Of a stretch of DNA of 13,511 nt, positions 3,427 through 13,511 are shown one piece after another. The DNA lies in the IMG/VR virus record IMGVR_UViG_2711768010_000006; one strand, given 5' to 3'. Every line of letters starts with the position of its first letter. The stretch's first letter is position 1. Origin of the DNA: a virus. Its lineage: Duplodnaviria > Heunggongvirae > Uroviricota > Caudoviricetes. Both the position numbers and the translations under genes were made by a program. The notes under the pieces were generated by a model. That model was not told where the DNA came from and searched no databases. It worked only from the letters and a program-made list of their open reading frames with translations.

Positions 3427-4170
3427 ATGACAGAGACAGAATCAGCGATTCTGGCGCACGCCCGGCGATGTGCTCCAGCGGAGTCGTGCGGCTTCGTGGT
3501 AAGAACGCCGGAGGGGGAAAGATATTTCCCCTGCGTGAATATCTCCGGTGAGCCGGAGGCGTATTTCCGTATGTCGCCGGAAGACTGGCTGCAGGCAGAG
3601 ATGCAGGGTGAGATTGTGGCACTGGTCCACAGCCACCCCGGTGGTCTGCCCTGGCTGAGTGAGGCCGACCGGCGGCTGCAGGTGCAGAGTGATTTGCCGT
3701 GGTGGCTGGTCTGCCGGGGGGCGATTCACAAGTTCCGCTGTGTGCCACATCTTACCGGGCGGCGCTTTGAGCACGGGGTGACGGACTGTTACACGCTGTT
3801 CCGGGATGCTTACCATCTGGCGGGGATTGAGATGCCGGATTTTCATCGTGAGGATGACTGGTGGCGTCACGGTCAGAATCTCTATCTGGATAATCTGGAG
3901 GCCACAGGGCTGTATCAGGTGCCGTTGTCAGCGGCGCAGCCGGGCGATGTGCTGCTGTGCTGTTTTGGTTCATCGGTGCCGAATCATGCCGCCATTTACT
4001 GTGGTGACGGCGAGCTGCTGCACCATATTCCTGAACAACTGAGCAAACGAGAGAGGTATACCGACAAATGGCAGCGACGCACACACTCCCTCTGGCGTCA
4101 CCGGGCATGGCACGCATCTGCCTTTACGGGGATTTGCAACGATTTGGCCGCCGCATCGACCTTCGTGTGA
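3427..4170 (+). CDS. K: Tail tip assembly protein K (lambda gpK-like; MPN/JAMM plus NlpC/P60 domains)
   Basis: 247-aa ORF starting 6 bp after the L stop. It carries an exact JAMM-type motif H-x-H-x7-S-x2-D (HSHPGGLPWLSEAD) and a downstream Cys/His set (GVTDCYTLF...NHAAIY) consistent with an NlpC/P60 fold. An internal ATG at 3571 with a GGAGG upstream would give the 199-aa form; the longer form keeps the whole MPN domain. The 3' end overlaps I by 103 bp. Confidence 0.88.
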   Translation: MTETESAILAHARRCAPAESCGFVVRTPEGERYFPCVNISGEPEAYFRMSPEDWLQAEMQGEIVALVHSHPGGLPWLSEADRRLQVQSDLPWWLVCRGAIHKFRCVPHLTGRRFEHGVTDCYTLFRDAYHLAGIEMPDFHREDDWWRHGQNLYLDNLEATGLYQVPLSAAQPGDVLLCCFGSSVPNHAAIYCGDGELLHHIPEQLSKRERYTDKWQRRTHSLWRHRAWHASAFTGICNDLAAASTFV

Positions 4171-4739
4171 AAACGGGTGCCGAAGCCATCCGGGCGATGG
4201 CCACACAGCTCCCTGCGTTTCGTCAGAAGCTGAGCGACGGCTGGTATCAGGTGCGTATTGCCGGGCAGGATGTTAGCACGTCCGGATTAACGGCACAGTT
4301 ACATGAGGCTCTGCCTGACGGCGCTGTGATTCATATTGTTCCCAGAGTCGCCGGGGCCAAGTCAGGTGGTGTATTCCAGATTGTCCTGGGAGCAGCCGCC
4401 ATTGCCGGATCATTCTTTACCGCCGGAGCCACCCTTGCAGCATGGGGGGCTGCCATTGGTGCCGGTGGTATGACCGGCATTCTGTTTTCTCTCGGTGCCA
4501 GTATGGTGCTCGGCGGTGTGGCTCAGATGCTGGCACCGAAAGCCAGAACTCCCCGCACACAGACAACGGATAACGGTAAGCAGAACACCTATTTCTCCTC
4601 ACTGGATAACATGGTTGCCCAGGGCAATGTTATGCCTGTTCTGTATGGTGAAATGCGCGTGGGGTCACGTGTGGTATCTCAGGAGATCAGCACGGCAGAC
4701 GAAGGGGACGGTGGTCAGGTTGTGGTGATTGGTCGCTGA
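4068..4739 (+). CDS. I: Tail tip assembly protein I (lambda gpI-like)
   Basis: 223-aa ORF, the same length as lambda gpI, overlapping the 3' end of K. It has an N-terminal soluble domain followed by a long Gly/Ala-rich hydrophobic segment (GGVFQIVLGAAAIAGSFFTAGATLAAWGAAIGAGGMTGILFSLGASMVLGG). Confidence 0.88.
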   Translation: MAATHTLPLASPGMARICLYGDLQRFGRRIDLRVKTGAEAIRAMATQLPAFRQKLSDGWYQVRIAGQDVSTSGLTAQLHEALPDGAVIHIVPRVAGAKSGGVFQIVLGAAAIAGSFFTAGATLAAWGAAIGAGGMTGILFSLGASMVLGGVAQMLAPKARTPRTQTTDNGKQNTYFSSLDNMVAQGNVMPVLYGEMRVGSRVVSQEISTADEGDGGQVVVIGR

Positions 4740-9020: not shown

Positions 9021-9031
9021 GTGGGGTGAAT

Positions 9032-12000
9032 ATGGCAGTAAAGATTTCAGGTGTACTGAAAGACGGCACAGGAAAACCGGTACAGAACTGCACAATCCAG
9101 CTGAAAGCAAAACGTAACAGCACCACGGTGGTGGTGAACACGCTGGCCTCAGAAAATCCGGATGAAGCCGGGCGTTACAGCATGGACGTTGAGTACGGNN
9201 NNNNNNNNNNNNNNNNNNNNNNNNNNNNNNNNNNNNNNNNNNNNNNNNNNNNNNNNNNNNNNNNNNNNNNNNNNNNNNNNNNNNNNNNNNNNNNNNNNNN
9301 NNNNNNNNNNNNNNNNNNNNNNNNNNNNNNNNNNNNNNNNNNNNNNNNNNNNNNNNNNNNNNNNNNNNNNNNNNNNNNNNNNNNNNNNNNNNNNNNNNNN
9401 NNNNNNNNNNNNNNNNNNNNNNNNNNNNNNGGATTCCCGCCGTCACATGCCGGGACCATCACCGTGTATGAAGATTCCCGACCCGGTACGCTGAATGATT
9501 TTCTCGGTGCCATGACGGAGGATGATGCCCGTCCGGAGGCTCTGCGCCGTTTTGAGCTGATGGTGGAAGAGGTGGCGCGTAACGCGTCCGCAGTGGCACA
9601 GAACACGGCAGCCGCGAAGAAATCAGCCAGCGATGCCAGCACATCAGCCCGTGAGGCGGCAACCCATGCGACTGATGCTGCAGATTCAGCACGTGCAGCC
9701 AGCACGTCAGCCGGACAGGCCGCTTCGTCGGCTCAGTCAGCGTCTTCCAGCGCAGGAACGGCATCAACAAAGGCCACTGAAGCCTCAAAAAGTGCTGCCG
9801 CTGCAGAGTCCTCAAAAAGCGCGGCGGCTACCAGTGCCGGTGCGGCGAAAACGTTAGAAACGAATGCGGCAGCGTCACAACAATCAGCAGCCACTTCTGC
9901 ATCCACCGCGACCACGAAAGCGTCAGAAGCTGCCACCTCAGCCCGGGATGCGTCGGCTTCAAAAGAGGCGGCAAAATCATCAGAAACGAACGCATCATCA
10001 AGCGCCAGTAGCGCAGCTTCCTCGGCGACGGCGGCTGCAAATTCTGCGAAGGCGGCCAAAACGTCCGAGACGAACGCCAGGTCTTCTGAAACGGCAGCGG
10101 GACAGAGTGCCTCAGCTGCGGCAGGCTCAAAAACAGCGGCTGCGTCGTCTGCCAGCGCCGCGTCAACAAGTGCCGGGCAGGCCTCAGCCAGTGCCACCGC
10201 CGCCGGAAAATCGGCAGAAAGCGCCGCATCATCCGCTTCAACAGCCACAACGAAGGCTGGCGAAGCCACTGAGCAGGCCACGGCAGCAGCGAGGTCAGCT
10301 TCCGCAGCGAAGACATCCGAAACGAACGCGAAAGCGTCGGAAACCCGTGCAGAATCCTCAAAAACGGCTGCCGCATCGTCCGCCAGTTCGGCGGCGTCAT
10401 CGGCATCATCGGCGTCTGCTTCAAAAGATGAGGCGACCAGACAGGCGTCAGCAGCGAAGGGCAGCGCCACGACGGCATCCACGAAGGCGACAGAGGCTGC
10501 TGGTAGTGCGACGGCAGCAGCTCAGAGCAAAAGTACGGCGGAATCTGCAGCAACGCGCGCTGAGACAGCGGCAAAACGGGCAGAGGATATTGCATCCGCC
10601 GTGGCGCTTGAGGATGCGAGCACGACGAAAAAGGGGATAGTACAGCTCAGTAGTGCGACTAACAGCACTTCCGAGTCACTGGCGGCAACACCAAAAGCCG
10701 TTAAGGCCGCGTATGACCTGGCTAACGGGAAATACACCGCACAGGATGCAACGNNNNNNNNNNNNNNNNNNNNNGTGGCTGGATTCTCAGGGAGCATTTA
10801 ACCATCCATACTGGATGTGCAAGGGTTCCTGGTCTTATGGCAATAATAAAATCATTACTGATACTGGCTGCGGTAATATTCATCTCGCCGGAGCTGTCAT
10901 TGAAGTAATGGGGATAAAGTCAGCGATGACGATCCGCATTACCACTCCGACCACATCCAGCGGTGGCGGAACAACCAACGCCCAGTTTACCTATATTAAT
11001 CACGGAACAGATTATTCACCTGGCTGGCGAAGGGACTATAACTCCAGAAATAAGCCAACGGCATCAGAGATCGGGGCGCTACCGTCAGGTGGAACAGCAG
11101 TATCATCAGTTAATCTGGCTTCAAAAGGTCGGGTAGCCGCGCTGACAGACAATACGCAGGGGGCAGCAGGTCTTGAGTTATACGAGGTGTATAACAACGG
11201 ATATCCAACAGCGTATGGAAATATCATTCACCTGAAAGGGATGACAGCCGTTGGCGAAGGTGAGTTACTCATCGGCTGGAGTGGTACAAGCGGTGCTCAT
11301 GCTCCGGCATTTATTCGTTCACGACGGGATACGACCGACGCAAACTGGTCGCCGTGGGCGCAGCTTTACACCTCGGCTCATCCTCCTGCAGAGTTTTATC
11401 CAGTCGGTGCACCAATCCCGTGGCCATCAGATACCGTTCCGTCTGGTTATGCCCTGATGCAGGGGCAGACTTTTGACAAATCTGCTTACCCGAAACTTGC
11501 AGCCGCTTATCCGTCAGGCGTGATCCCTGATATGCGTGGCTGGACGATTAAGGGCAAGCCCGCCAGTGGTCGTGCCGTATTGTCTCAGGAACAGGATGGC
11601 ATTAAATCGCACACCCACAGCGCCAGCGCATCCAGTACGGATTTGGGGACGAAAACCACATCGTCGTTTGATTACGGCACTAAATCCACGAATAACACCG
11701 GGGCGCATACGCACAGTCTGAGCGGCTCTACAAGTTCAGCTGGGGCCCACCAACATAGTCAGACTGGGCCCAGAACGAATAGCGGGAGTCAACCTACTGG
11801 AATGTTTCCGGCAGGGAGTACTCAAGTTAGCGGGACTAATCAGGTTGGTATCAGTGGCTCATTAACCAGTGGCACCTCCCAATGGGTAGGTAAATCATCT
11901 TCAGAAGGAAACCATACACACTCACTGTCCGGCACAGCAGCATCTGCGGGTGCACACGCGCATACTGTCGGTATTGGTGCTCATACGCACTCTGTTGCGA

Positions 12001-12098
12001 TTGGTTCACATGGACACACCATCACCGTTAACGCTGCTGGTAACGCGGAAAACACCGTCAAAAACATCGCATTTAACTATATTGTGAGGCTCGCATAA
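9032..12098 (+). CDS. stf: Side tail fibre protein Stf, interrupted by two runs of N with a frame change across the second
   Basis: The N-terminus from the ATG at 9032 ([33 protein letters not shown]) matches lambda Stf; the GTG at 9026 in the ORF track is a less likely start. The middle is an Ala/Ser/Thr-rich repeat, followed by a tail fibre repeat motif ([41 protein letters not shown]). The C-terminal part (ORF 10653..12098, frame 0) ends with the His-rich segment and ...[22 protein letters not shown], as in lambda Stf. The two ORFs are one gene split by the N runs. Confidence 0.75.
9199..9430. other. Run of 232 N (assembly gap or masked sequence) inside stf
   Basis: Directly visible in the sequence. 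The flanking coding frame is preserved across it. Confidence 0.99.
9598..10620 (+). repeat. Coding tandem repeat region in the stf shaft (Ala/Ser/Thr-rich, recurring K-T/S-S-E-T-N-A units)
   Basis: Motifs such as [28 protein letters not shown] and [37 protein letters not shown] recur at irregular spacing of roughly 30-80 aa. The low-complexity GC-rich DNA also opens spurious ORFs in other frames and on the minus strand (9733..10482, 9828..10595, 9864..10640). Boundaries are approximate. Confidence 0.6.
10754..10774. other. Run of 21 N inside stf, with a reading-frame change across it
   Basis: Directly visible. The upstream stf frame ends at a stop at 10799-10801, while the downstream stf frame is the one opened by ORF 10653..12098. 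Confidence 0.99.
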
Positions 12099-12679
12099 TG
12101 GCATTCAGAATGAGTGAACAAGCACGGACCATAAAAATTTATAACCTGCTGGCCGGAACTAATGAATTTATTGGTGAAGGTGACGCATATATTCCGCCTC
12201 ATACAGGTCTGCCTGCAAACAGTACCGATATTGCACCGCCAGATATTCCGGCTGGTTTCGTGGCTGTTTTCAACAGTGATGAGTCATCGTGGCATCTCGT
12301 TGAAGATCATCGGGGTAAAACGGTTTATGACGTGGCTTCCGGCGACGCGTTATTTATTTCTGAACTCGGCTCATTACCGGAAAATGTCACCTGGTTATCC
12401 CCGGAAGGGGAGTTTCAGAAGTGGAACGGCACAGCCTGGGTGAAGGATACGGAAGCAGAAAAACTGTTCCGGATCCGGGAGGCGGAAGAAACAAAAAACA
12501 GCCTGATGCAGGTAGCCAGTGAGCATATAGCGCCGCTTCAGGATGCTGTGGATCTGGAGATCGCAACGGAGAAAGAAACCTTGTTGCTGGAAGCTTGGAA
12601 AAAGTATCGGGTGTTGCTGAACCGTGTTGATACATCAACTGCACCGGATATTGAATGGCCAGTAGCACCTATAGGGTAA
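12098..12679 (+). CDS. tfa: Tail fibre assembly protein Tfa (chaperone)
   Basis: 193-aa ORF beginning [54 protein letters not shown], matching lambda Tfa. Its start shares 1 bp with the stf stop (TAATG). Confidence 0.9.
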
Positions 12680-12759
12680 ATTCGTAATGATTACCTAAAT
12701 ACGTTATTCTTTTGTTAAAAAAGTGATTTTGCTATAGGTAGGGAGTATGTTCTTGGATT

Positions 12760-12795
12760 AAGAATAAAAAATCGCCATGAAAGAGCTTCATGGCG
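12760..12795 (-). terminator. Rho-independent terminator reading on the minus strand
   Basis: Perfect 9-bp inverted repeat CGCCATGAA / TTCATGGCG (12773-12781 and 12787-12795) with a 5-nt loop. On the minus strand the hairpin is followed by ATTTTTTATTCTT (reverse complement of 12760-12772). Confidence 0.55.
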
Positions 12796-13428
12796 AGTAC
12801 ATAAACGTACAAAATGTGATGAAAGTAGAGTGGCGTAAGCCACTATATTAAGATATGACAATAGCGAAGAAAAGTAAATAACATTTTATGGACGTTTAAT
12901 TGTTAATTATAAAAACTAGAGTGCCCGATATTGTTTATCTTGCTTTAAAATAATGTACTCAAACCAAATTTTTGAGCTAAAAGCTCAAATAATATAAATG
13001 CAATAATAATGTTTAATAAGACAATTAGCTTGCTTTGTATTTTCATTTCGGAATACTGTTAAGTAACTTTGATGACCCTAACAATAGATCGGAATTTTCT
13101 TAGAGTCAATGGTCACTGTTTTTGCTTGCAAAGCAAATGTTTTGGTGGTTATAAGTCGTCTTAATATAGTCACGCATGCAACTTGTTCCATGCGGAGATT
13201 AAAGATTGGAATATAACGCGAAGATGGAATTAAATTACATTTGCAATAATTAATTTATTATTACTCAATAATTACCGATATTATTATTGTAAATTAATCA
13301 TTAGAATGCAAAAAGAAATGTAACGGCAAAATAAGAGGACGATAGCTGAGAAAAAAGCGTGCTTTCCCAATCTGGGGCAAATCACGTCTGAATGACACCT
13401 GAAAACAGGTGGTAGCCTCAAGAAGGCT

Positions 13429-13511
13429 GGTGATGCTGCCAACTTACTGATTTAGTGTATGATGGTGTTTTTGAGGTGCTCCAGTGGCTTCTGTTTCTAT
13501 CAGCTGTCCCT
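13429..13511 (+). mobile_element. IS1 insertion sequence, left end only (continues beyond the window)
   Basis: The sequence GGTGATGCTGCCAACTTACTGATTTAGTGTATGATGGTGTTTTTGAGGTGCTCCAGTGGCTTCTGTTTCTATCAGCTGTCCCT matches, as far as I can recall it, the IS1 left terminal inverted repeat and the start of insA. Confidence 0.9.
13484..13511 (+). CDS. insA: IS1 InsA, first 9 codons only (GTG start; truncated by the window edge)
   Basis: GTG GCT TCT GTT TCT ATC AGC TGT CCC translates to MASVSISCP, the InsA N-terminus, at the expected distance from the IS1 inverted repeat. Confidence 0.7.

Follow-up and report, generated by a model that had tools for sequence, protein, structure and literature searches.

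An IS1 copy among the cargo of a lambda-like prophage, with one-sided loss of adjoining DNA in its relatives

The window, by which we mean the whole 13,511-bp stretch of DNA analysed here, corresponds to an entire draft scaffold (CWVQ01000118.1, assembly GCA_001250875.1) that stops 83 bases into an IS1 element. The features around this junction, and two assembly gaps further left, are:

12098..12679, + strand: tfa, tail fibre assembly protein (ORF; Pfam Caudo_TAP_N and Caudo_TAP)
12680..13428, no strand assigned: AT-rich cargo spacer from tfa to IS1, 27–37% G+C
13420..13428, + strand: 9 bp of phage DNA abutting IS1, candidate original target, AAGAAGGCT
13429..13511, + strand: first 83 bases of the IS1 element, 83/83 identity to IS1, cut by the scaffold end
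13429..13451, + strand: IS1 left terminal inverted repeat, 23 bp, GGTGATGCTGCCAACTTACTGAT, identical to annotated IS1 copies
13436..13463, + strand: promoter-like site in the left inverted repeat region, consensus match CTGCCA-16-TATGAT
13484..13511, + strand: start of insA, GTG, 9 codons plus 1 base, translation VASVSISCP, identical to insA
9199-9430: run of 232 Ns inside stf
10754-10774: run of 21 Ns inside stf

The tfa stop codon ends at 12679 and leaves a gap of 749 bp before the first base of IS1. An earlier note on this DNA had placed an IS1 about 750 bp downstream of tfa in the prophage cargo region, and both the gap and the 83/83 match agree with it. The spacer (12680..13428) is 98.5–99.2% identical to phages mEp332, PhiR70_1 and ev099. 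Like the lambda b-region and other moron cargo, the region follows lom-stf-tfa, is low in G+C and contains small accessory genes and IS remnants, and the module is shared with the isolated phages ev099, mEp332 and PhiR70_1. The cargo genes found here, which are not those of lambda, comprise a small ORF resembling YncL and a regulator of YdeO/GadX type. The small ORF, 33 codons long and hydrophobic, lies on the minus strand at 12945-13046 (MKIQSKLIVLLNIIIAFILFELLAQKFGLSTLF) and is also kept in phage ev099. Its product resembles YncL, a small stress-response membrane protein, with an NCBIfam score of 25 bits against a cutoff of 35 (E 1.3e-5). Nearby, positions 13109-13081 resemble a promoter, and a strong terminator hairpin on the minus strand lies at 12796-12772. 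Further left, Rfam IS009 (RF02111) gave a full-length match on the plus strand at 12441-12639, scoring 218 bits where the gathering score is 117. This match falls wholly within the tfa coding sequence, in its 3′ half, and the "RNA family" thus coincides with a conserved protein-coding stretch.

The bases from 13429 to 13511 read GGTGATGCTGCCAACTTACTGATTTAGTGTATGATGG... and begin with GGTGATGCTGCCAACTTACTGAT; the left inverted repeat opens with the G at 13429, which fixes the start of the element to the base. When the 83 bases were compared with the plasmid collection by megablast, at least 5,000 records matched, each at 100% identity over the full length, and the matches sit under features annotated as "IS1 family transposase". 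The same 83 bases open the complete IS1 copies, each 768 bp long, of E. coli 20Ec-P-124 (L001) and S. sonnei (L006). The 83/83 match is far beyond chance, and 83 bases are too few to assign an IS1 isoform. The insA start lies 55 bases from the beginning of IS1, an offset equal to that of the annotated transposase coding sequence in 20Ec-P-124, and the full-length insA product in S. sonnei loci with the identical junction contains the Pfam domains Zn_ribbon_InsA and HTH_Tnp_IS1. The left inverted repeat at 13429-13451 and the GTG at 13484 with its translation VASVSISCP therefore match IS1, in agreement with the earlier note. From its position and from general knowledge of IS1, we take the promoter-like site at 13436..13463 to be the putative insA promoter.

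Elements of the IS1 family (IS1A/IS1B/IS1R type) are 768 bp long, carry insA-insB′ with a −1 frameshift and are usually flanked by a 9-bp target duplication. The copy described here resembles them in its 23-bp terminal repeat and insA start, both in the window, and in the 768-bp length and frameshifted transposase seen in relatives. Wherever the sequence continues past the junction, the element is a full 768-bp IS1. In these complete copies the left inverted repeat pairs at 18/23 positions with the reverse complement of the right end, and in junction-sharing relatives the transposase is annotated with a programmed frameshift. By extension from these relatives, the genome behind the window would also carry the full IS1 right end and the transposase. 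This copy departs from the usual IS1 picture in that the window holds 83 bases only and in that the 9-bp duplication is missing in every complete relative.

The record stops at 13511 because the draft assembly broke within the repeated IS1, and the right end of IS1 is absent from the record because the scaffold stops 83 bases into the element. An E. coli genome contains about 10 places that match IS1 (median), and the scaffold break is the usual collapse of such a multicopy repeat in short-read assembly. A sister draft, CWUT01000060.1, which we reached via the exact Lom protein, is identical to the window over its last 1,500 bp and has the same end base. The junction between flank and IS1 left end was also present in 13 IMG/VR contigs, 9 of which terminate 19-98 bases inside IS1. 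The warning in the earlier note that IS1 marks likely assembly trouble is thus well founded, as the window, the sister draft and most IMG/VR junction contigs all break within this range. In practical terms, this explains where the record ends and warns that DNA to the right of the prophage is unreadable from CWVQ01000118.1, the only contig on record with the exact J protein of the window. Two other irregularities of the scaffold were observed. The stf gene is seemingly split into overlapping ORFs (9026-10801 and 10653-12098); this split is a scaffolding artefact caused by an assembly gap and not a frameshift. The window begins part-way through the tape-measure gene; repeated sequence among lambdoid prophages probably interrupted the assembly there as well.

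Closed S. sonnei chromosomes, reached via the exact Tfa protein, matched the window at 100% identity from 10775 to 13511 (2,737 bp), with the same junction base. One of them, CP019689 (L009), is that of S. sonnei 75/02, in which the locus lies inside the lambda-like prophage region 75/02pp2 (PMC5447701). The J and lom genes of the window differ from those of the S. sonnei loci by 12 mismatches in 2,813 bp, and judging from these differences we regard the source lineage of the window as distinct from all compared genomes.

The different configurations were counted among 5,426 complete E. coli genomes. A 120-base query centred on the left junction (flank plus IS1) was covered by at least 80% in 79 genomes, and the intact left site without IS1 was found in 828. 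The E. coli-type right junction was present in 120 genomes and the whole unit of left flank, IS1 and right flank in 73, so that in about 47 genomes the right junction occurs unaccompanied by the left. The left side of this IS1 copy is therefore not invariably fixed, and inversions of the kind described below for STEC409 probably account for part of this excess of right junctions over whole units. A larger figure of 280 carrier genomes was rejected, as the 749-bp flank alone gives more than 80% coverage; the junction-centred query gave the count of 79. A scan of species-representative genomes did not find the left junction. One carrier, E. coli D10 (L029 2344-2353), has a left junction in which AAGAAGGC is followed by GGTGATG, one T shorter than in other carriers, which may be genuine variation or an error of sequencing.

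The E. coli-type unit is present in prophages adjoining ybhB-bioA, the lambda attachment region, and also in a prophage bounded by intS and the tRNA-Arg(CCT) gene argW and adjoining yfdC. The S. sonnei version is located at the intS-argW-yfdC site. Because one junction occurs at two integration sites, and in both E. coli and Shigella, the insertion predates the spread of the cargo module.

We then compared the two flanks of IS1. The 9 bp to the left of 13429 are AAGAAGGCT (13420-13428) and not CAAGAAGGC, as given in the earlier note. This left flank is identical in the loci L001, L005-L012, L019 and L030, whereas the right flanks differ. In E. coli 20Ec-P-124 the order is AAGAAGGCT, IS1, CTTATTGGC; in the S. 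sonnei loci and the IMG/VR contig L019 it is AAGAAGGCT, IS1, AATTGGGTGG. Across the relatives, we found CTTATTGGC, AATTGGGTG, ACGGTGCTG or CATTCCATG on the right against AAGAAGGCT on the left, and no complete relative with the left junction has a 9-bp target-site duplication around IS1. The duplication that the earlier note had proposed as a check was therefore absent from them all, and these copies are not simple insertions.

In IS-free phages, the target site AAGAAGGCT continues directly into TGGAATATTC. Phages ev099, mEp332 and PhiR70_1 contain both flanks at 98.5–99.4% identity and no IS1, with 550 bp between the break points, and E. coli STEC313 has an equal IS-free spacing, with 1,505 bp from tfa to an AraC-family gene. 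The comparison with prophages lacking the insertion, also suggested in the earlier note, thus identified a 550-bp segment, positions 3750-4299 of the ev099 locus (L002), that is missing from E. coli-type carriers. In S. sonnei the break point lies 191 bp further right, and 741 bp are missing. The left junction is fixed, and the three right end points (E. coli type, S. sonnei type and the usher gene in L010) lie in one direction. No S. sonnei-type right junction was found in E. coli among the matches listed; the E. coli matches to this junction were discarded as two-piece matches, being E. coli-type junctions with 191 bp in between.

The third end point comes from S. sonnei LR213458 (L010 8100-8641), in which the left junction again leads into a full IS1. 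Immediately beyond the element come the final 172 codons of a fimbrial usher gene, with a StfD-like chaperone gene and then fimbrial subunit genes further on. The gene order and orientation would fit a much larger IS1-adjacent deletion in the same direction, and this points to loss of the AraC-family gene, intS and argW. The deletion presumably extends past intS, argW and yfdC, a size estimate based on the K-12 map. The expectation that IS1 may delete neighbouring prophage DNA is hence borne out by relatives, with 550 or 741 bp missing and far more in this one S. sonnei strain.

A different rearrangement was seen in E. coli STEC409, where the prophage is in two halves 2.25 Mb apart. The left half (L030), with the tail genes, the left junction and IS1, lies at 1.41 Mb and runs into a truncated htrE. 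The right half (L031), at 3.66 Mb and on the other strand, consists of IS1, the E. coli-type right junction, the AraC-family gene, intS, argW and yfdC, and adjoins the other piece of htrE, the usher gene of the yad fimbria. This indicates an IS1-bounded chromosomal inversion that split the prophage, in line with the remark in the earlier note that IS1 can drive inversions. A former simple IS1 insertion in htrE was rejected, as the junction 9-mers differ (GAGCCATTT vs CATTCCATG). Since the htrE junctions share no 9-bp repeat, more DNA was lost in STEC409 too, and part of htrE appears to be missing.

The reading that we favour, at a probability of about 0.85, is that this IS1 is an old passenger of a lambda-like prophage cargo module and that IS1-associated deletions then occurred on its right side. 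The AT-rich cargo region would first have received IS1 at or close to AAGAAGGCT. DNA adjoining its right end would subsequently have been lost, most likely via IS1-promoted adjacent deletion, i.e. intramolecular transposition from one IS end, with two small deletion end points that would give the 550-bp form (E. coli type) and the 741-bp form (S. sonnei type). As an adjacent deletion keeps the element and one junction and erases the duplication, it would account for the missing target duplication, the single feature in which the anatomy of this copy differs from that of its family. This order of events and the deletion mechanism are suggested by natural variants, and established knowledge of IS1 together with the one-sided pattern of end points supports adjacent deletion. 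The genome of the window probably carries the 741-bp form, because the final 2.7 kb of the window do not differ from the S. sonnei version; the right junction of this genome is read from these relatives.

IS1-promoted adjacent deletions are classically described beside IS1 in the gal region of E. coli. The locus resembles them in that the IS is retained at the junction, one side is constant, several end points exist and there is no duplication. It differs from the classical cases in that the mechanism is deduced here from natural variants and that an identical sequence would result if two IS1 copies had recombined.

In this second explanation, two IS1 elements would have inserted independently in direct orientation, one per break point, and homologous recombination would have deleted the interval and one IS1. 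The end product equals what is observed (one IS1, no duplication, missing DNA), IS1 is multicopy at the median of about 10 places per E. coli genome given above, and IS1-by-IS1 exchange is evident at this very copy in STEC409. However, a separate second insertion in the same orientation would be needed for each of the three right end points, and an IS1 with a duplicated target was found neither at the left break point in E. coli genomes, IMG/VR and metagenomes nor at the right one in IMG/VR. Recombination between two IS1 copies is less economical than adjacent deletion, and we think it possible but rather unlikely. The ancestral forms searched for were an IS1 with duplication and without deletion, not found in the E. 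coli genomes, IMG/VR or metagenomes, and the mirror form with IS1 and duplication at the right break point, not found in IMG/VR.

The remaining two explanations concern the genome of the window itself. It could contain a simple IS1 insertion with a 9-bp duplication of AAGAAGGCT, its right end joined to AAGAAGGCTTGGAATATTC, at an insertion hot spot and independent of the relatives. IS1 prefers AT-rich DNA, the target region has a G+C content of 27–37%, and the right side of IS1 lies outside the window record. The signature of such an insertion, the IS1 right end (GAGTCATTACC) followed by AAGAAGGCT and intact phage DNA, was nevertheless found in none of the 5,426 E. coli genomes and in no contig of IMG/VR or the metagenomes, and the flank shows no difference (100% identity over 2,737 bp) from S. 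sonnei genomes that have the same junction base and the deletion. We consider an independent insertion very improbable. Slightly less credible still is an assembly chimera or truncated IS1 stub, in which case the source genome would have no complete IS1 beside the prophage. The draft quality of the scaffold, its two N runs and its end inside a repeat speak for this, but the same junction is present in the independent sister draft CWUT01000060.1, and closed S. sonnei and E. coli genomes show it followed by the full 768-bp IS1.

Adjacent deletion at an old IS1 copy thus remains our preferred account, and the lost DNA can be described from the IS-free phages. The 550 bp hold no annotated gene in the phage records except for an overlap with one hypothetical ORF. 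Inside this segment, at about 3860-3922 of the ev099 locus (L002), lies a 3′ fragment of tRNA-Ser(CGA) of roughly 62 nt, with the anticodon arm, long variable arm, T arm and CCA and without the 5′ half. The Rfam signal for it is indirect, and ARAGORN called no tRNA on the 550-bp segment. The fragment looks like an attachment-site remnant of some tRNA-integrating element in the phage cargo.

In S. sonnei, the further loss of 191 bp affects the upstream region of the AraC-family gene, which lies to the right of IS1:

L001 10724-11467: AraC-family regulator, 247 residues
L006 8115-8857: AraC-family regulator, the corresponding S. sonnei copy

The best NCBIfam matches of this regulator are YdeO and GadX, both below their cutoffs. 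The gene is intact in E. coli 20Ec-P-124 and in the IMG/VR contig L019 and has a one-base frameshift in the S. sonnei loci, where the right end of IS1 is 15 bases before its ATG. It is conceivable, though we give the idea little credence, that IS1 with its stepwise right-side deletions silenced or rewired this phage-borne YdeO/GadX-like regulator before its decay, in the course of a long travel through E. coli and Shigella prophages at two att sites. If true, IS1 would have altered a phage-encoded regulator of host physiology.

The inversion in STEC409 and the frameshifted regulator in S. sonnei resemble the IS-bounded inversions and IS-driven decay known from Shigella and E. coli, a likeness shown by the relatives and without trace in the window itself. 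The behaviour of IS1 at this locus is of a kind already known, and so is this kind of prophage cargo region. The locus is a natural example of textbook IS1 behaviour, with a 0.55-kb, a 0.74-kb and a larger deletion and a 2.25-Mb inversion from one left junction, and this left junction could serve as a lineage marker for the prophage cargo module. A further prophage (L032 15329) contains the intact target site, AAGAAGGCT followed by TGGAATATTC, about 3 kb past tfa, with Mn-catalase, DUF892 and KGG genes between tfa and the target site. From this arrangement it follows that the DNA to the left of the target site is itself mosaic.
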